A stretch of DNA of 64,000 bases, from contig CM000153.2 of assembly GCA_000004695.1 (NCBI GenBank), positions 928,001 to 992,000 of the forward strand, read 5' to 3'. Numbering within the stretch: position 1 is the first letter of the stretch; each line of letters opens with the position of its first letter. A model generated the notes under the pieces. The model was not told the origin of the DNA. It did not search any database and worked only from the letters and a program-made list of their open reading frames with translations. This document shows, piece after piece, positions 6,848 through 17,249 of the stretch. The position numbers were made by a program, and so were the translations under genes. The DNA comes from Dictyostelium discoideum. Its lineage: Eukaryota.

Positions 6848-9361
6848 ATGTCTGAAATTCAATTTTTAAGATCATTATTTTTAAAATTAATTTTAATAAT
6901 AATAATAATAATAACAATAATAATAATTGATAACAATAATAATAAAATAAAATTTGTAAATAGTGCAATTATAAAATGGAATAATGAAACACTTGATATG
7001 GATTTTTTAGATCCATTAGGATGGGAGAATAATATTGTACCAAGTAATGAAGATGATGCAATAATTGATATTAATAATATATTGGTTGTTGGTTTAGAGA
7101 ATGAAATTCATATAAATTCATTACTACTTGAATCAAATTCAAGGATGGCATCAATTCAACTATTTACAACCAAAGATAATATAACCATTGGTATGAACTC
7201 ATTATTGTTATCAAAATATACAAAAGCAAGATTAATTTCAAATTATGGTAAATTCAATGGTCATTATCCAATTTCATCAATACAAGATACAATTGTCAAT
7301 AGTTTTGGTAATGCACAAGTTAATTTCATAAATTCCACTGAAATGATCGCAATAATTGAATCACCTTCAAACTTTTATCAAACTTCTCAAATTAACATTG
7401 AAAATTCAAATGCTTACTTTTATAATACATCAAGTATTAATTTATTCGATCAATCTAAAATCAATTATTTTTCATCATCAATTAGACATATCTCTTTTTC
7501 ACATATAAATTTATATAATAATTCACAATTTTCAATAAATAATTCAACTTTATTAATTTCAAATGGTAATCAATTTAATTTTAATGATAATTCAATTTTT
7601 ATTTCAATAAATAGTGATATTATAATTCAAAGTAATAATAGTATTTTTAAAACTTTTTCTACAACTTCAACTTCAAATTCTTCAAATTCAACAACTATTA
7701 AATTTAATAAAACAAATTTTTATTCAACAGATGGTGGTGAAATTTTAATTTTAAATAGAAATTTATTATTTTTAAATTCATTTTTAATTTCAAATGGTAA
7801 TAATTCAAAAACTACAATTAATGATGGAGAATTTAATATTATTAATCAATCAATAATTTATTCAAATGATGGTGGTGAAATTAATTTTAGTAATAATTTA
7901 AATTCAATTAAAGATACAATAATGATAACTCAAGATGGTGGTAAAATCAATTTATATAAAACTATAGTTACAAAAAATGTTTCAATTGAAATAACCGAAT
8001 TTCAAAGTAATTTAAATTTAAAACCATTCTCAACAATGAATTTAAATGGTGGTTCAAAAATTAAAATTTCAAATGGTGCAAATTTTTTAATCTCTGAAAA
8101 TAGTTTTTTAAATTTAACAAATAGTGAAATCTTAATCGATATAAATGGTAGCCTATTTCAAAATGGTCCAATTTTTTTAAATTCAAATAATAAATTTGAA
8201 AATAGATTTAAATTTTATTTATCTTCAAATATTTTAACAACAAATTTACCAACTTCTTCAACTTCAACACCATCAATAATACCAACAACTACAACTACAA
8301 CATCAACATCAACAACAACATCAACATCAACAACAGAATTAAAATCAATAAAATCAATAAATAATAATTTAATTAATAATAATGGTTCAATTATTATTAA
8401 ATCAAATAAAATAATTTTAATTAATATACCAATTATTAATAATGGTACAATTATTGTTAAATCAAATTGTTTCTTTTCAAATTATCATCAAAATAGTAAT
8501 AATTCAGAATTAATAATTAAAAATGATTCAATTATTGATAGTAATGAAAATATTCATTTAAAAGCTGGTAAAATCTATGGTACTGGTAGAATTAATACTT
8601 CGGTAATTCATGATTATGGTGAATTGGGTTCAAGAAATGTAACTGGTCTTTTAAATATAACTGGTGATTATACATTATCTGCCAATGGCTTGGTAGTGGT
8701 TGTTATAAATTCGTTGACTGATTTCACTCAAATTCGAATCAATGAAACTGCAATTCTAAAAGGTGATATTGAAATTATCGTTTCAAATAAAATTTCAACT
8801 ACAAAGTTAATTCAATTAGATGTTGTCAATTATCATGATTTGGATAGATATAGTATCACTTTTAGAAAGGTTAGATTTAAAACTTTTGATCCTGATACTG
8901 GTTTAGAAATGAATGGTCATGATTGTGCTAGATCAATCTCTACCGATAGATCTTTCTCTGTGGTACTCATTGATTGTCAATCTCCAATTTCAACTGGTGT
9001 TATCATTGGTATCGTTTGTGGTATTGTCTTGATTGTAATTGTTGTTGCTTCTTCTTATCATTTTAAAAAATCTTTATCAAATCGTATAAATAATTCTTCA
9101 ATTCTTATAAAATTAAAAAAATCAAAAACTAAAAATAATAATCAAGAAAATGATCAAGAAAAAGAAAATGAAAATGAATATCAAAATGAAAATCAAAATG
9201 AAAATGAAAATGAAAATCAAAATGAACTTGAAAATGAAAATGAAAATGGAAATGAAATTGAATTTGAAAATGAAATTGAAAATGTTAATGAAATTGAAAA
9301 TGTTAATCAAATTGAAATAACACAAAATAATAATGATAATGAATTTAATGTAAATAACTAA
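6848..9361 (+). CDS. Type I membrane glycoprotein, 837 aa. It has a signal peptide, an Asn/Ser-rich ectodomain with repeated DGGEI/NGG-containing units (beta-helix / Pmp-like repeats), one C-terminal TM, and a cytoplasmic tail of (ENENEN) repeats.
   Basis: Complete ORF. Hydrophobic N-terminus [18 protein letters not shown]. Repeats STDGGEILIL, SNDGGEINF, TQDGGKINLY, NLNGGSKIKI. TM is VIIGIVCGIVLIVIVVASS followed by KK. Confidence 0.7.
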   Translation: MSEIQFLRSLFLKLILIIIIIITIIIIDNNNNKIKFVNSAIIKWNNETLDMDFLDPLGWENNIVPSNEDDAIIDINNILVVGLENEIHINSLLLESNSRMASIQLFTTKDNITIGMNSLLLSKYTKARLISNYGKFNGHYPISSIQDTIVNSFGNAQVNFINSTEMIAIIESPSNFYQTSQINIENSNAYFYNTSSINLFDQSKINYFSSSIRHISFSHINLYNNSQFSINNSTLLISNGNQFNFNDNSIFISINSDIIIQSNNSIFKTFSTTSTSNSSNSTTIKFNKTNFYSTDGGEILILNRNLLFLNSFLISNGNNSKTTINDGEFNIINQSIIYSNDGGEINFSNNLNSIKDTIMITQDGGKINLYKTIVTKNVSIEITEFQSNLNLKPFSTMNLNGGSKIKISNGANFLISENSFLNLTNSEILIDINGSLFQNGPIFLNSNNKFENRFKFYLSSNILTTNLPTSSTSTPSIIPTTTTTTSTSTTTSTSTTELKSIKSINNNLINNNGSIIIKSNKIILINIPIINNGTIIVKSNCFFSNYHQNSNNSELIIKNDSIIDSNENIHLKAGKIYGTGRINTSVIHDYGELGSRNVTGLLNITGDYTLSANGLVVVVINSLTDFTQIRINETAILKGDIEIIVSNKISTTKLIQLDVVNYHDLDRYSITFRKVRFKTFDPDTGLEMNGHDCARSISTDRSFSVVLIDCQSPISTGVIIGIVCGIVLIVIVVASSYHFKKSLSNRINNSSILIKLKKSKTKNNNQENDQEKENENEYQNENQNENENENQNELENENENGNEIEFENEIENVNEIENVNQIEITQNNNDNEFNVNN

Positions 9362-9645
9362 AGAAAACTATTAGAATTAAATTGATATTTTTTAATTCAC
9401 TTTATGCATGCTACTTGTGTTTAGTATTGCATTATATATTAAATATATAAATATATATATAAACCGATTTTTAATTAAAAGGGATTGAAGATTTAAAAAA
9501 AGAGTTTTTTTGTTAAAAGTCTTTCAAATTAAATAAAAAATCCATAATAAAGCAATAATTTATTTAAATAAAACTAATACTACACATCATCCTTTTTTAA
9601 AAACTTTTTATATTATTCTTTTTTAAAAAAAAACAAGAAAACAAC

Positions 9646-9678
<33 letters not shown>

Positions 9679-9902
9679 TAAAGATAAAGATAATTGGAAA
9701 GTTTAAAATAAAAGATACACAATCATTCAAGTTTGCACTTTTCAAAATTTGAATTTATTTAGTTAATTTTATTTTAGTTATTAGTTATTATATTTTTTCA
9801 GTAAAAGCTTCATTAGATAATTATTTTTACTTTTTTCAAAAATAATTAAAGTAGAAATTTAAAAAATAAAATTAATAATTAAACAAAAAATAATATTTTT
9901 AT

Positions 9903-10258
9903 TATTGGAAGACCCGGAAGGGCAGGAAAAAAAGTAAGGTCAAAATTCAACATCTCGCCAATTTAAGGCTCATTTAGTATTGTATTAAAAAAACAAAACT
10001 AACTTTTATACTATCCATTCTTATTTTATATTTAATTTATAGGGTTTAGCAATTTCCTTCTTCAATGAAAAGAATAAACCAGTAGGTGTTTAACTTTTGA
10101 AATTAATGAAAGCATCAAATCAAGATATTCCAGATTGGTTTGAAAAGATGGTACATAACCTTCGTATGTCTAATGGTCCATCAAATTCAAAATCAAAAAG
10201 TCTATTCAACAATAGTCATCACAATGGAGATGATAACCGTGGTGGTTATGGTGGATTT
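9903..10258 (+). pseudogene. Plus-oriented partial copy of the ddx3 3' end: end of the penultimate exon (IIGRPGRAGKK|gtaagg), a diverged intron, and about 200 nt of the terminal exon with an in-frame TAA.
   Basis: Nucleotide identity to 11305..11805 read on the opposite strand. GGTTTAGCAATTTCCTTCTTCAATGAAAAGAATAAACCAGT is shared. The copy has GGTGTTTAAC where the gene has GGTGCTGAAC. The ORF-track hit 10097..10285 starts [25 protein letters not shown], identical to the gene. Confidence 0.8.
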
Positions 10259-10261
10259 TTA

Positions 10262-10335
10262 TTTGAGGGCCAACAAGGTCCCTAAAATGATGGATTTTAA
10301 TCTAAAAAGCACTTAATTTTTTTCTTAGTCTTCCT
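10262..10335 (-). pseudogene. Minus-oriented fragment copying the ddx3 exon-end/intron-start (cacttaa tttttttcttagtcttcc), abutting the plus-oriented copy. This is an inverted junction.
   Basis: Compare 10286..10330 with 11741..11790 (ccctaaaatgatgRgattttaatctaaaaagcactta). Confidence 0.65.
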
Positions 10336-11092
10336 TTCCTAATATTTTTTTTTTTTTTATAAAGATAAAAAATAAAAAGGGTGAGATTTACAAAAAAAAA
10401 AAAATACCAGATTTTGTCATCTTTTTTTTCTTTTTTTTTTTTTTTTTTTTTTTTTCAAAATTTTGTCACATTTTTTTTCATAATTATAATTTCACACTTT
10501 TTTTCAATCTCTTTTTTTATATCTTTTTTTTTGTATTAAATACATCAATATTACCGCCACACCAATGAAAACTCCAACATTCTCTTCATCTTTTAATTTA
10601 TCCTTATAACAATTTTTTTTTATTTATTTTTCTTAGTGTTTTATCTTTTTTTATTTTTTATTATTTTTTATAATATTTAAATCAAATAAATTATTTAATC
10701 TTTTTTTGAATTAATTTAAAAAAAAAAAAACAACCCACATCCAAAATTTGAAATTAAAAAAAAATAAACCAATTCAACCAAATCAATTTTTTTTTTTCAA
10801 TATCCTTTTTAATTGAAATTTATTATTCATAATTAATTATGAAAAAAAAAGGACTTGAAATTTTTTACATTGATCTTGATTTTTCAACCGAAATTTTTGG
10901 ACTTCTGCTTTCTTTGTATTTTAAAAATTCTTATACTTTTTCACTAATCCTTTCTCCAATTTTTTGATATCTATGGAAGGTATTATTTGATTTTTCATTA
11001 AAATTTGGTAAGAAAATGATTGATACTGATTGAAAACGTAATTGTAAGTAGATTAAATGTGAATGTTGATCTTTGAGCTTCCTAATTTTTGT

Positions 11093-11125
<33 letters not shown>

Positions 11126-11127
<2 letters not shown>

Positions 11128-11200
11128 GGAAGAGCAGGAAAAAAATTAAGTGCTTTTTAGATAAAATTCCATCATTTTAGGGCCTAGTTAGCCCTCTAAT
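11126..11200 (+). pseudogene. Third, plus-oriented fragment of the ddx3 exon-end plus the 5' half of the intron, 100 bp beyond the real stop codon.
   Basis: gtggaagagcaggaaaaaaattaagtgctttttagataaaattccatcattttagggcctagttagccctct versus revcomp of 11718..11790. Confidence 0.65.
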
Positions 11201-11304
11201 AAAAATCAAATACAAAAGATACATATGAGAAAATGATTTTAATTCAATATTGAATTAAAATGGATTTATTATTTTTTATTAAACGAATGACATGAGGTGA
11301 ATGT

Positions 11305-13576
11305 TTAATTATATGAACCACCATTGTTGCTAAAGTATGGGTGATGCATTGAGTAATCTGATTTATCTTCTCTTCTATCATTACGGTTGTTACTGTAACC
11401 TCCATTACCACCACCACCACCACCATAACCACCACGGTTATCATCTCTATTGTGATGACTATTGTAAGATTTGTTGAATGGACTATTTGATTTTGAGTTT
11501 GATGGACCTTTAGACATACGGAGATTGTGTACCATCTTTTCAAACCAATCTGGAATATCTTGATTTGAAGCTTTCATTAATTTCAAAAGTTCAGCACCAA
11601 CTGGTTTATTCTTTTCATTGAAGAAGGAAATTGCTAAACCCTATAGTTGTAAACATAAAATAAGTAAGGAAATATACAAATTAAGAAAGGAAAATAAAAA
11701 GGTTAGTAAAGGTTTTTAAAAGAGGGCTAAATAGGCCCTAAAATGATGAGATTTTAATCTAAAAAGCACTTACTTTTTTTCCTGCTCTTCCGGTTCTACC
11801 AATACGATGAACGTAGATATGTATGTCGGTAGGCAAGTCGAAATTGATAACCAAATTAACATTACCGATGTGGAGACCTCTTGATGCAATATCAGTTGCT
11901 ACTAAGAATGGAGTTGCAAAAGAACGGAAAGATTGAAGTGCATTTTCTCTTTCTGGTTGAGTTAAATCACCATGAATACAGGTAGTTGGGAAATTTCTTT
12001 GATTTAAAAAGTAGGTAAGAGTATCACAAGAACGTTTAGTTTCAACGAAAATGAGACAAAGACCATCAGATTTCAAACCACTAAGATAATCTAACAAGTA
12101 ACTGTTTTTATCCTCTTCAACTACGTATTCAATTCTTTGTGTGATATTTTGAGTGGTACCAACAACACCAACTTTTAAGAAGATGTAATTGTAAAGGAAA
12201 TCAGCTGCAAGATTTTGAATTTGTTTTGGGAATGTAGCAGAAAACATAAGAGTTTGACGATCTCTACAACCTGGCATATCAAATTCAGAGATGATTTGAC
12301 GAATTTGTGGTTCAAAACCCATATCTAACATACGATCAGCTTCATCCAAAACCAAGTATTTAATTTTTGAAAGTGAAACACGACCACGCATTAAGAGATC
12401 AACGAGACGACCAGTTGTTGCTACCAAGATATCACAACCTCTATCTAATTCATTGATTTGATGGAAAACTTCTGCACCACCATAGATTACGACCGATGAT
12501 ACTGGTGAACCATAAGAGAATTTGTTTGCCTCATCAAAGATTTGTTGAGCCAATTCACGAGTTGGTGCGAGTACTAATGCACGTGGACAAGCAGCTCTTG
12601 GAACACCTGGTTTATAGGCTGGTGGAGCTTCTGGTGCTCCATCTAATAAAATACCGGAAATGATTGGGAATAAGAAAGCAGCGGTTTTACCTGAACCAGT
12701 TTGAGCACAAGCCATTAAATCACGATTTTTCAAAATGATTGGAAGTGCAGATTTTTGAACTGGAGTTGGTTTGGTGTATTTGGCATGTTTAATATTACCC
12801 AATAAAACATCACCCAAATCAACATCGGCAAATGAATTCAATGGAGCACAAATATGTTCACTGGTTTCAATGGAGATATCATCATCGTCGTAAGCATTGA
12901 AATCGATACCAATGTTGTCATCATTCTTTTTGAAGATTTCTTCGGCTTTGTGTTCTTCGAGATCAATGAATTCTCTTTTCATTTCTGGATGATTTCTTGA
13001 ATCTCTAAAGTTTGACCATCTATCGTAGTAACGATCATTTTTATTGGCTGGTTTACCAAAACTACTGCCACTTCCGCCTCTATTACCATAACCACCTTGA
13101 TTACCACCACGAGAGAATGAATTATTTGGTGAATAAGAGTAACTATTACCTCTTGGTGGGCCTTGTTCTCTTGGACCATTATCCCAACCACCGCTACCAC
13201 TACTACTACCACCACCATTACTATTATTGTTTCTTGAGAATGATGGACTTTTGTAGTTATCTCTACTGTTGTTGTTGTTATTAGAGTTATTTTCCCTAAA
13301 ATTGTTACCACCTCTGTAACCATCGTCACGACGGTCACGATTGAATGGTGAATCACGATTATCACGGTCAGATGGTGATGGATAATCGTCTCTTGATGAA
13401 CCTGAACTATTATTCATCTTGTTTCTACGAGATGGTGGGACATATGGTTCACTAGTTTGTGTTGTTGTTGTTGTTGTGTTGTTGTTTGATGAAGTTGACG
13501 AACTCTTATCAGAGATGGTTAACCCTGAGATATTCAGGGTAGTTCCATCGTTATCTTTGTTATTTCCAATTGGCAT
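11305..13576 (-). CDS. ddx3: DEAD-box ATP-dependent RNA helicase DDX3/Ded1 orthologue; join complement(11305..11640,11774..13576); intron 11641..11773 (GTAAGT...TATAG).
   Basis: Motifs [18 protein letters not shown] ([12 protein letters not shown]), [12 protein letters not shown]-terminal YVPPSRR matches human YIPPHLR. The terminal exon [36 protein letters not shown] matches human [30 protein letters not shown]. The tail is Gly/Asn-rich. Confidence 0.9.
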
Positions 13577-14314
13577 AAAATGACTAATTCTTTAAAAAAA
13601 TTTATCTATATTTATTTTTAATAAATTAAAAAAAAATGAAAATTAAATAATAAAAAGGTAAAAAAAAAAAAAAGTTAATTTATATTTTTAATAAAAAAAT
13701 AAGAAAAAAAAAATTAAAAAACAATTAAAATAATTTTATTAAAAAAAAAAAAAAAAAAAAAAACGGTTTTATTTTATTTAAATTTATTTAATTATTATTT
13801 TTTTTTATTTTTTTTAATAAATTCGTTTATTTTGTGATTATTACTGTTTTACAAAAAAAAAAAAAAAAAAATAATTTGAGAAAGAAGTTCCAACAACAAT
13901 AAAAAAAATAAAATAAAAAAAGATTTACAATTTTATAGATATAATTTAAAAATAATTTTTAAATATAATAAAATATAAAAAAAAAAAAACAATATAAAAT
14001 AAAAAAAAAAAAAGTATTGTATAAATAATTTTTTTTTGAAATAAAAAAAAAAAAATAAAAAAAAATAATAAAAAAAAAATAAATAAATAAATAAAAAATT
14101 TATAATGTTTAATAAAAATAATTAAAAAATTTAAAATAGTTTTTTTTTAACACACACACACACACACATACATTCACCACACAATACTCTTAATATGGTT
14201 TTAATTTTGAGAATTTAAAATAGTTTTTTTTTTTTTTTATAAAAAAATTGCCATTTTAAGTTTGCGATAATTTTATATTTCAACAATTTTTATTTTAAAA
14301 TAAAAATAAAAATA

Positions 14315-14347
<33 letters not shown>

Positions 14348-14536
14348 TGGGAATGAAGTGTAAATTAAGTGAAATAAAAGTAAAAATAAAATATAAAAAT
14401 AAAAAAAAACTAAACGATAAAAACTAAAAATAAAAAAAAATAATAAACGATAAAAAAAACAAATATAAATATATATTTACCCGCGTGGATGAAAATTGAA
14501 AAAAAAAATAAAAAATTAAAAAAAAATTAAAAAAAA

Positions 14537-14575
<39 letters not shown>

Positions 14576-14779
14576 AAAAAAAAGTCGAAAGAAAAAAAAA
14601 AAAAAATTAAAAATAAATTTGAAATTCGTATTTTCTATAAAAAGGAAGTTGGTATAATCTTAAAAAAAAGGTTTTTTTAATTTTTTTTTTAAATTATTTA
14701 AAAAAAATTTATATTTTTTTATATTTTTCTAATTTTTTTTTTTTTTTACCTTTTTATTGTTTAATTTAAATTATAAAAA

Positions 14780-14954
14780 AAAAAAAATTAAAAAAAAAAA
14801 AAGATACTATAAACGATTATATATCTTTCTATTCCATGTCCATTTTTTGTAAATTTTTTTTTTATAAATCTATTATTATTATTAGAAAAAAAAAAAAAAA
14901 AAAAAAAAAAAAGATACTATAAACGATTATATATCTTTCTATTCCATGTCCATT
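14780..14954. repeat. Two direct copies of about 65 bp (A-run + AGATACTATAAACGATTATATATCTTTCTATTCCATGTCCATT) 110 bp apart, about 250 bp upstream of the cyclophilin-40 start.
   Basis: Identical strings at 14802..14844 and 14912..14954. Confidence 0.8.
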
Positions 14955-14985
14955 AATTTTCAAAATCATTATAGGTTATAGTTTA

Positions 14986-15028
<43 letters not shown>

Positions 15029-15185
15029 TAATTTTTTTTTTTTTTGATTTTTTTGATTTTCAATTTATTATTTTTTTTTTTTTTTTTTTATAATTTTCAT
15101 TTCATTATTTTTAATTTAAAATTTTTAAATCGTGTGTGTATTTATTTTTTTAATAAATATTTTTGAGAAAAAAAAAAAAAAAAAA

Positions 15186-15586
15186 ATGACAAGTGAAAAT
15201 AAAAGAGTTTATTTTGATATTGAAATTGGTGGTAATAAAGTTGGTAGAATTGTTATGGAATTATTCTTTGATAAAACACCAAAGACAGCAGAAAATTTCA
15301 GAGCATTATGTACTGGTGAAAAAGGTATTGGAAAGAATGGTAAACCATTATCTTATAAAGGTTCAGGTTTTCATCGTGTTATTAAACAATTTATGATTCA
15401 AGGTGGTGATTTTACAGCTGGTAATGGTACTGGTGGTGAATCAATTTATGGTGAAAAATTTGATGATGAAAATTTCATTGCAAAACATACTAAAGCTGGT
15501 CTTTTAAGTATGGCAAATTCAGGTCCAGGTACAAATGGTAGTCAATTCTTTATTACTACAATTAGTACACCACATTTAGATAAGTA

Positions 15587-15633
<47 letters not shown>

Positions 15634-16382
15634 ATTTTAAAACAATTATTATTATTATTATTATTATTTTAACAATTTTTTTATTATTTATTTTTATTAT
15701 TTATTTTGTTTTTAGTAAACATGTTGTATTTGGTAAAGTTATTAAAGGAATGAGTGTTGTTAGAGAAATTGAAAGTCAACCAACAGGAGCAAATGATAAA
15801 CCAATTAAAGATTGTATTATTATGGATTGTGGTGAATTAAAAGAAGGTGAAGATGACGGTGTACCAGAGAAAACTGGTGATGACAAATGGGAAGATTATC
15901 CACAAGATGATAATGTTGAAGGTAATGAAGCAAACTTAAAAGTTGGTGAAGCCATTAAAAACATTGGTAATGATTATTTTAAACAAGGTAAATCATTAGA
16001 AGCCATAGCCAAATACAATAAAGCATTAAGATATTTAGATTGTTGTAGTAATATCGATGGTTTAAAGAATGTTCAAACCATTTGTTATAATAATATGTCA
16101 CAATGTTATTTAAAGGAAAAAAAAGGTTCCAATGCTTTGGTAGCTGCAAAAAAAGCATTAGAATTATCACCAAATGATATTAAAGCACTCTTTAGAAAAG
16201 CTAAAGCTTTATCTTTAATGGAGGAATATGATGAAGCTATCAAAGATTTCCAAAAAATCATTGAAACCGATTCCGAGAATAAAGATGCAAAACTTGAATT
16301 AGAAAGAATTAAAAAATTACAAAAAGCAAAAGATCTTAAAAGTGCCAAAGCTTATTCAAAACTTTTTTCTGATGATGATTAG
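15186..16382 (+). CDS. Cyclophilin-40-type peptidyl-prolyl isomerase (cyclophilin domain + 3 TPR); join(15186..15583,15716..16382).
   Basis: Exon 1 has [15 protein letters not shown] and [18 protein letters not shown]. The donor is GAT AA|GTAAGT. The acceptor TTTTAG|T restores [21 protein letters not shown]. The C-terminal half has TPR repeats ending ...[12 protein letters not shown], which is CyP40/PPID architecture. Confidence 0.9.
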
Positions 16383-16597
16383 AAAATTTTCTAAAAAAAA
16401 CACAATAAAAAAACAAATAAAAAAAAAAAAAATAAATAAAATTTTTTTTAATAAACAAGTAAAGATAGATTCATTTCATTTTATCTTATTTTTTAATTTT
16501 TCAGAGGAAATAATACGATTTAAAAATTTCAATACCTTCAGGTATTGAACCGATATTGAAATTTGGATTTGATTGTATTAATTTGAAACAATATTCC

Positions 16598-16767
16598 TAT
16601 GCTTTGGTAGCTGCAAAAAAAGCATTAGAATTATCACCAAATAATATTAAGGCACTCTTTAGAAAAGCTAAAGCTTTATCTTTAATGGAAGAATATGATG
16701 AAGCTATCAAAGATTTCCAAAAAATCATTGATTCCGATTCCGAGAATAAAGATGCAAAACTTATATA
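16598..16767 (+). pseudogene. Tandem partial duplicate of the last TPR-coding segment of the cyclophilin-40 gene, about 95% identical to 16131..16300.
   Basis: [14 protein letters not shown][D/N][28 protein letters not shown] encoded twice. ORF 16556..16861 begins in unrelated sequence and runs into A-rich read-through. Confidence 0.75.
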
Positions 16768-17249
16768 TAAGATTAAAATAAAAAAAAAAAAAAAAAAATT
16801 TTATAAAATATTAAAAAAACAAAAAATTTCTACCACACTCAAAATAGTATTACATGTTTGAATGATAATTTTTTCATCACTTTAAACCTTACCAATAAAA
16901 CATAACACCATAAACAAATATATTTTTAAAATAATTAAACCAAATTGCAAAAAGGTGTATTTTTTTTAAATTTTATTTAACCTAAATTTTGAAAAGGAAA
17001 TCAAGTATAGATTTGAATAAAAAATTTAATGGTAGTGTGGGGTGGTTGTAAAACTAATAACCCCAAAAATTAAAATTTTCCAAATATAATTTGTTTTTAA
17101 TAAAAATTAAAAAATAATTTTTTTTTTTTTAAAAAAAGTATTATTATTTTTATTTATCATAATAAATAAAAAGTATAAATAGGATAATTTGAAATTATAA
17201 TTTTATTAAATCAATGATTTGCATAATTTTATTTTATAATCAACTATAA

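Follow-up and report, generated by a model that had tools for sequence, protein, structure and literature searches.

Inverted partial copies of ddx3 beside the parent gene in Dictyostelium discoideum are probably non-functional unprocessed pseudogene fragments

The 3′ end of the Dictyostelium discoideum helicase gene ddx3 is accompanied by three partial copies of its last exon-intron region, here termed A, B and C. Judging from sequence comparison, these copies are probably non-functional unprocessed pseudogene fragments, the remains of small inverted duplications nested at the 3′ end of the gene. What the locus shows appears to be genome decay of an ordinary kind, made slightly more interesting in evolutionary terms by the apparent conversion of fragment sequence into the intron of a functional gene.

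The ddx3 locus and its three fragment copies

The stretch of DNA analyzed here (the window) covers 64 kb of chromosome 4 of D. discoideum AX4 and has a G+C content of 21.7%; all positions given below refer to this window. Analysis of open reading frames and splice reconstruction placed ddx3 (DDB_G0283661) on the minus strand at 11305-13576. The gene consists of exon 1 (11774-13576), a terminal intron of 133 nt (11641-11773, GTAAGT...ATAG) whose 3′ half contains a 22-nt tandem duplication, and a terminal exon (11305-11640) ending with the stop codon TAA (11305-11307). The spliced product is a DEAD-box helicase of 712 aa and is identical to Q54QS3 / XP_638950.1, annotated as “Probable ATP-dependent RNA helicase ddx3”. 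Reading along the plus strand, the 3′ end of a neighboring gene of 837 aa (at 9361) is followed by copy A (plus strand), copy B (minus strand), a spacer of 784 nt, copy C (plus strand), a 3′ flank of 100 nt and ddx3 itself (minus strand). In this order, the block formed by A and B is the mirror image of the block formed by the ddx3 3′ end and C, with A/gene and B/C as the paired arms. Reading of the sequence also revealed AATAAA signals 27-40 nt past the ddx3 stop codon and upstream of C.

Copy A was located by repeat detection and self-BLAST at 9903-10258 on the plus strand, as the original prediction had it. This copy comprises an exon end (9903-9933), an intron of the alpha type described below (9934-10042) and a truncated terminal exon (10043-10258). 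Repeat detection aligned 10038-10212 of A with 11471-11645 of the gene (94% complementary, 175 nt) and 10209-10254 with 11420-11465 (98%, 46 nt). The perfect matches between A and the gene were 46, 41, 28, and 22 nt long, and in self-BLAST a palindromic alignment spanning 9903-11804 reached an E value of 1e-162. The homology begins at 9903, and the upstream exons of ddx3 are missing from the copy. The alignment spans the exon end, the intron and the terminal exon, which means that the intron and the splice junctions were kept and that A is not a retrocopy. The in-frame TAA (10091-10093) and the R-T to R-P change that had been noticed in copy A were confirmed, as were its intact AG acceptor and the ddx3 reading frame. 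Besides the premature stop codon, copy A carries a 9-nt deletion and is truncated at 10258. Decay of this kind suggests that the fragments lack a function, and copy A in particular appears to be a dead fragment.

Copy B (10256-10341, minus strand) contains the exon end and the first ~60 nt of the intron, and was 83% identical to 11713-11798 of the gene over 87 nt (E=4.5e-16). Copy C (11126-11205, plus strand) is an inverted exon end with the start of the intron, and 11128-11205 matched 11713-11791 of the gene with 91% identity over 79 nt (E=2e-20). Both copies were detected by repeat detection and self-BLAST, both span the ddx3 exon-intron junction, and both have TT instead of GT at the former splice-donor position. 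B and C, separated by 745 nt, are 85% complementary to each other over 79 nt. The significant self-BLAST matches demonstrated that B and C are real, whereas the idea that they are simple copies of the present gene did not hold, since their sequence is of an old type (beta, see below) that has diverged. Copy C lies 100 nt past the ddx3 stop codon, as anticipated. The junction between A and B (GGTGGA|TTTTTAT) had been described as head-to-head; it is actually tail-to-tail, with the 3′ ends facing each other. The spacer between B and C (10342-11125, no strand assigned) was analyzed by comparison with relatives and ORF look-up. Its positions 10498-10695 are orthologous to sequence beside copy B in one wild relative (L007), the rest of the spacer had no match in the other lineages compared, and an A30 run occupies 11096-11125.

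The similarity between the copies and the gene exceeds what low-complexity sequence would yield, as had been claimed. Core motifs of 22 and 27 nt occurred 3 and 2 times, respectively, in the 64 kb, as compared to 0.14 and 0.00 expected from shuffled sequence, and within the window these motifs were confined to the ddx3 locus; the E values, down to that of the palindromic alignment, point in the same direction. The ORF of the neighboring 837-aa gene was then used to reach chromosome CM142510.1 of the assembly GCA_054883475.1, which was 99.7% identical to the window over 19.4 kb. Between 9400 and 12000, this assembly differed solely in the homopolymer lengths at 9647, 10392, and 10431, and A, B and C were the same base for base. 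Its accession series and near-identity to the window suggest that this assembly is one of the Nanopore+Illumina assemblies produced de novo by Holland et al., 2025 (PMC12745789), probably that of AX2-214. An assembly artefact, i.e., chimeric or collapsed reads in the AX4 reference, would be suggested solely by the a priori risk inherent in AT-rich palindromic DNA. Because the same structure was found in an independent de novo long-read assembly, and orthologous fragments were found in the assemblies of four wild isolates (L002, L006, L007, and L008), the copies are not a product of misassembly, a risk which the original prediction had acknowledged and which now has a negligible probability.

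Fragments and sequence types in related lineages

The ddx3 loci of relatives were obtained from a homology search and a cluster listing, and those of L004, L005, L008, and L009 were read directly and searched for sequence patterns. The D. discoideum complex was represented by AX4, by L006 and L007 (“D. discoideum”) and by L002 and L008 (“D. cf. discoideum”), and D. citrinum (L004), D. firmibasis (L009) and D. purpureum (L005) served as outgroups. All five lineages of the complex carry a C-like fragment immediately behind the stop codon, at orthologous positions. Copy A was found in AX4, L002, L006, and L007, in a different form in each. The L002 copy is inverted, lies 3.1 kb from the stop codon, is the longest of all and is not accompanied by B. 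This copy continues past the point where A joins B in the other lineages, and the sequence upstream of it is also different; it may have arisen by a separate duplication instead of descending from the old A. In L007, copy A is inverted, located 5.3 kb away and 5′-truncated, and shows exactly the A|B junction of AX4. In L006, a unit of flank, A and B is found 7 kb away in direct orientation; B abuts A, and A is 3′-truncated, being cut after GAAAAGATG. L006 and L007 also have orthologous counterparts of the sequence flanking A and of a portion of the AX4 spacer. Moreover, the A copies of AX4 and L007 share derived substitutions (5/127 differences between them, vs. 12/212 between the AX4 copy and the AX4 gene), and copy A is therefore old.

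No inverted A was found within 10 kb of ddx3 in L008. Instead, this lineage has a recent direct tandem duplication of 516 bp that includes the 3′ half of the intron, the terminal exon and the UTR (2/221 differences). The three outgroups have a single copy: no A-like second terminal exon was detected within 8-10 kb of ddx3, and reading of the 3′ flanks in D. citrinum and D. purpureum revealed no obvious C. D. purpureum and D. firmibasis have no intron at the site of the terminal intron. Within the complex, a fragment of some kind persists near ddx3 in four of the five lineages, a persistence that a purely neutral view does not strongly predict.

The five lineages of the D. discoideum complex display five different arrangements, and A, B and C are seen in different states of neutral-looking decay across AX4, L002, L006, L007, and L008. 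These lineage-specific structures suggest that the ddx3 3′ end is a site of recurrent micro-duplication. The turnover of the fragments appears to be that expected of unconstrained DNA.

Alignment of the exon end together with the intron start distinguished several sequence types. The alpha type (81-96% identity) comprised copy A of AX4 as well as both the gene and copy A of L002 and of L006. The beta type comprised the AX4 gene, copies B and C of AX4 and copy B of L006, and a decayed “old C” type was represented by copy C of L002 and of L006. L007 combines an alpha gene with an old-type C and a beta B. The AX4 gene is of the beta type solely across the exon-intron junction, where the first ~75 nt of its intron correspond to the type of B and C, whereas copy A of AX4 is of the alpha type, as are the functional genes of three other lineages. 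In L008, the gene junction and the lineage's own C are both beta-like and 84% identical over 90 nt; the gene intron is 85% identical to that of the AX4 gene vs. 75% to the alpha type, and TT occupies the splice-donor position of the gene. Splicing of this intron in L008 (the ACTFIZ isolate) is predicted to use the donor TTAA|GTACAA and the acceptor TTTAG|CAATTTC, with GKKLTISFF as the product; the TT may instead be a sequencing error.

Paralogous sequences were thus closer to each other than orthologous ones. Over the exon end and intron start, the gene and copy A were 96% identical within L002 and 96% within L006, as compared to 84% between the A copies of these two lineages; this too suggests conversion, with a separate duplication as the alternative for L002. 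Likewise, the gene and C shared 91% identity in AX4 and 84% in L008, the whole gene introns of the two lineages being 85% identical. Such homogenization within a lineage was not seen for the terminal exon of AX4, where copy A grouped with that of L007.

In AX4, the intron start of copy A is ~64% identical to that of the ddx3 intron, and the exon is 94-98% identical. Selection on the exon of A was suspected from this contrast (94% in the exon vs. ~64% at the intron start) and was rejected, because the contrast is due to the beta intron of the gene: the AX4 gene carries an intron of the fragment type, and A has retained the type that is functional elsewhere.

The distribution of the alpha and beta types implies that sequence moved between the fragments and the gene, most likely by gene conversion, and it seems that any history of the locus needs such a transfer. 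The most parsimonious history would start from an ancestor with an alpha gene, an alpha A, a beta B and a beta C. In the AX4/L008 haplotype, copy C would then have acted as the donor of a conversion at the gene junction, and on grounds of parsimony the direction was presumably from the fragment to the gene. The alpha and beta types could not be rooted with D. citrinum, whose intron has diverged too far (z about 1-3). An old alpha/beta polymorphism followed by lineage sorting is an alternative to a single conversion event. It is suggested by the beta intron haplotype shared by AX4 and L008, as this includes the 22-nt duplication, which lies outside the extent of C. The AX4 gene has an intact GT donor, so that no defect results from the apparently acquired tract.

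Origin of the fragments and alternative explanations

The observed arrangement may be explained by four steps. An initial fold-back (template-switch) event would have placed an inverted copy of the exon end and the intron start ~100 nt past the stop codon, giving rise to C, which would then have diverged into the beta type. Subsequently, a larger inverted duplication of the segment containing C, the 3′ UTR, the terminal exon, the intron and the exon end may have produced the mirror block of A and B, and a deletion would have joined the truncated exon of A directly to B. Finally, the lineages would have diverged by further truncation, insertion, inversion or loss, while the short repeats may also have traded sequence by gene conversion. 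The junction GGTGGA|TTTTTAT is common to AX4 and L007; its simplest reading is that of a secondary deletion, and the primary junctions appear eroded. A fold-back inverted duplication had been proposed originally. The mirror order A(+)B(-)|C(+)gene(-) fits this proposal, which needs to be amended inasmuch as the copies are old, decaying and specific to lineages.

The AX4 reference proteome lists two small ORFs of this region as gene models, and one or both could accordingly be regarded as genuine small protein-coding genes. Exact sequence look-up identified them as DDB_G0283657 (Q54QS5; hypothetical protein of 59 aa, 10106-10285, plus strand, also present in the ORF list) and DDB_G0283659 (54 aa, 10931-11095, minus strand, in the B-C spacer). 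However, DDB_G0283657 is merely the ddx3-derived C-terminal frame of A after the premature TAA, continuing into copy B, and the orthologous A copies of L006 and L007 have different truncations. The region of DDB_G0283659 has no counterpart in L002, L006, and L007. Moreover, neither of them is called as a gene in the AX2-like assembly (GCA_054883475.1), and a coding function is highly improbable.

A regulatory role of the fragments is possible but unlikely on the basis of the available sequences. The fragments might be a source of hairpin RNA or endo-siRNA regulating ddx3, with Dicer-like processing and siRNA feedback on the gene. A ddx3 read-through transcript or a transcript of DDB_G0283659, running on the minus strand via B, would contain the antisense of A, which could pair with the terminal exon in trans or, through a loop of ~1.2 kb, as a hairpin in cis. 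The arms of 175 nt (94%) and 46 nt (98%) have a predicted duplex energy of -322 kcal/mol, their runs of perfect complementarity (46, 41, 28, and 22 nt) extend over at least 21 nt, and a copy of A is kept in four of the five lineages. The RNAi machinery of D. discoideum is functional, and antisense RNAs of 21 nt are known for some of its mRNAs (PMC2175303; PMC6161686). However, the inverted geometry is not conserved. A conserved hairpin function is difficult to reconcile with L006, where copy A is in direct orientation and 7 kb away, and with L008, where it is missing; in L002 and L007 the arms are 3-5 kb apart with other sequence between them. None of the three outgroups has A either, and it is truncated differently in each lineage that carries it. 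Since the AATAAA signals follow the stop codon so closely and precede C, read-through is not expected to be common. The literature searched contained no mention of DDB_G0283657, DDB_G0283659, DDB_G0283661 or Dictyostelium ddx3 small RNAs, and no small, antisense or long non-coding RNA was reported for these genes. The lncRNA supplements had no entry for the locus, and the Dictyostelium small-RNA and miRNA literature, including PMC2175303 and PMC6161686, contained nothing for it. A scan of 8000-15000 against Rfam (E<=1) gave no relevant match. Altogether, an siRNA source at this locus is unlikely. The B/C element was separately considered as a snoRNA or class I RNA and was rejected, as no D box and no class I motif were recognized by eye.

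Long-range pairing within the ddx3 pre-mRNA was considered as well, whereby C would hide the last splice donor and tune splicing or 3′-end formation. C corresponds to the exon end and 5′ splice site over 79 nt with 91% identity, and for AX4 the duplex is predicted at -106 kcal/mol. Similarity between the gene junction and C has been kept in AX4 (91%) as well as in L008 (84%), despite the divergence between these two lineages, and the position of C is the same in 5/5 lineages. On the other hand, the pairing is not conserved, the junction and C being about 52-54% identical in the alignment of the family for L002 and L006, with L007 counted alike. C is also located beyond the likely poly(A) signals, and gene conversion between close inverted repeats explains the likeness of the gene junction and C without selection. 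A function of this kind is very unlikely. The two ideas may be combined into a negative feedback, in which a read-through ddx3 transcript would fold onto the antisense of A, or C would pair with the last 5′ splice site; the transcript would be diced or mis-spliced, and conversion would keep the arms matched. Such a feedback is likewise quite unlikely.

Finally, B and C resemble the terminal inverted repeats of a small DNA transposon or MITE with captured ddx3 sequence, as they form 79-nt inverted repeats (85%) around a segment of 745 nt. This candidate was rejected, because no further copies were found within the 64-kb window and the flanks showed no target-site duplication at 10256 or 11205. 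Furthermore, the repeats hold ddx3 exon sequence, a short exact beta motif was found solely beside ddx3 fragments in the relatives' loci examined, and copy B of L006 and L007 occurs without the spacer-plus-C arrangement of AX4. It is extremely unlikely that B and C delimit a transposon.

Implications and comparison with known systems

If the copies are indeed remnants of nested inverted duplications, DDB_G0283657 (Q54QS5) is better flagged as a ddx3 pseudogene fragment than as a hypothetical protein. Because of the perfect identities of 22-46 nt to A, probes for the ddx3 3′ end, RNAi constructs, CRISPR guides and short-read mapping can cross-match 9903-10258, and the inverted repeats may destabilize knock-in constructs. 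As an example of micro-duplication recurring at the 3′ end of one gene, the locus is both compact and dated, with five lineages and five structures. In addition, dead fragments seem to trade sequence with an essential gene here, and in one wild isolate (L008) the splice-donor position is included. Should the fragments make small RNAs, they would constitute a rare amoebozoan regulator born by inverted duplication of its target.

Inverted partial copies of genes are known from hpRNA and endo-siRNA loci such as the Drosophila hpRNAs and the pseudogene siRNAs of mouse oocytes. Young plant MIR genes were reportedly described by Allen et al. in Nat Genet in 2004 as being born by inverted duplication of the target gene. 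Small RNAs of rice pseudogenes are the subject of another report (PMC2708354). Similar to hpRNA and endo-siRNA loci, ddx3 has a near-identical inverted part-copy nearby in a host with Dicer, RdRP and Argonaute. In contrast to hpRNA and MIR loci, the inverted arrangement at ddx3 is not conserved, and no transcript or small RNA has been reported there.

The arms of the ddx3 locus also flank a unique spacer and appear to be homogenized within lineages (gene and C in AX4 and L008, gene and A in L002 and L006), as do those of larger palindromes. The palindromes of the human Y chromosome are fold-back inverted duplications with arm-to-arm gene conversion. In comparison to these, the ddx3 arms are tiny (80-360 nt), decaying, patchily homogenized and not conserved between lineages. 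Conversion from a pseudogene into its functional gene is known in humans from CYP21A1P to CYP21A2 and from SBDSP to SBDS. In the same way, ddx3 seems to have gained a tract from a nearby defective copy, and in L008 this tract includes the TT at the donor position. Unlike in CYP21 and SBDS, the ddx3 tract is mostly intronic, the GT donor of AX4 is intact, and the direction of the conversion is suggested by parsimony.

As in unprocessed pseudogene fragments in general, the ddx3 copies retain introns and exon boundaries, lack a promoter as well as the upstream exons, and are situated beside the parent gene, and they exhibit a premature stop codon, an indel and truncations. They differ from the usual unprocessed pseudogenes in forming a set of three nested fragments in mirror order, one of which is annotated as protein-coding.

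Terminal-intron donor of ddx3 in a wild locus

An altered start of the ddx3 terminal intron was found at positions 11780-11930 of L008, the locus from D. cf. discoideum ACTFIZ (GCA_054859235.1). In this locus the intron begins with TTAAGT in place of GTAAGT, and the TT at the donor position is the same as that in B and C, two of the fragment copies of the ddx3 3' end. The deposited L008 gene model (P0124, 778 aa) bypasses the TT donor: it omits the exon segment encoding helicase motif VI (HRIGRTGR) and runs into a 516-bp tandem duplicate. Three readings are offered for the TT: conversion damaged the donor and cryptic sites rescue it, the TT is a sequencing error, or the locus is a pseudogene.

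The interval between copy C and the A/B unit

The DNA separating C from the A/B unit was compared among AX4 (window 10342-11125), the D. cf. discoideum locus L002 (10380-13370) and the D. discoideum loci L006 (12370-19317) and L007 (12386-17342). Its size and content are wholly different in each of the four, with 0.8 kb in AX4 versus 3-7 kb in the other three, and in L006 and L007 it contains a predicted gene of 987-1041 aa. The interval looks like a rearrangement hot spot with ddx3 fragments at its borders.

Repeats and duplications around ddx3

In the ddx3 3' UTR, AATAAA signals are directly followed by a perfect 26-nt palindrome, ATTTTAATTCAATATTGAATTAAAAT (window 11236-11261), which is mostly kept in L002, L006, L007 and L008 and may form a 3'-end hairpin. 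The divergent intergenic (promoter) region between ddx3 and its neighbour, a cyclophilin/TPR gene with coding sequence at about 15132-16382, carries a 75-nt direct repeat (14770-14844 and 14881-14954, 96% identity, period 111 nt); a long run of A stands before both copies.

A second 3'-end micro-duplication, less than 5 kb from that of ddx3, affects the cyclophilin/TPR gene: 16127-16341 recurs at 16594-16807 (plus strand, 90% identity) in direct orientation, about 250 bp beyond the stop codon and with the frame kept. The cyclophilin/TPR model comprises 417 aa in the AX2-like assembly (GCA_054883475.1) versus 354 aa in relatives, and the former seems to have taken in the fragment copy.

The 837-aa ORF (6848-9361) ends in a coding repeat of 12-nt period, AATGAAAATCAA... 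(9137-9330), which yields an N-E-N-Q low-complexity tail and varies in length between AX4 and L002 (ORF of 837 versus 852 aa).

Position of the ddx3 intron in group-4 species

The ddx3 intron position is not constant among group-4 species (D. firmibasis L009 11740-11900; D. purpureum L005 9840-9870; D. citrinum L004 9770-9875). An intron follows ...GRAGKK in D. discoideum and D. citrinum; at this site D. purpureum has none, and D. firmibasis instead has one about 60 nt upstream.
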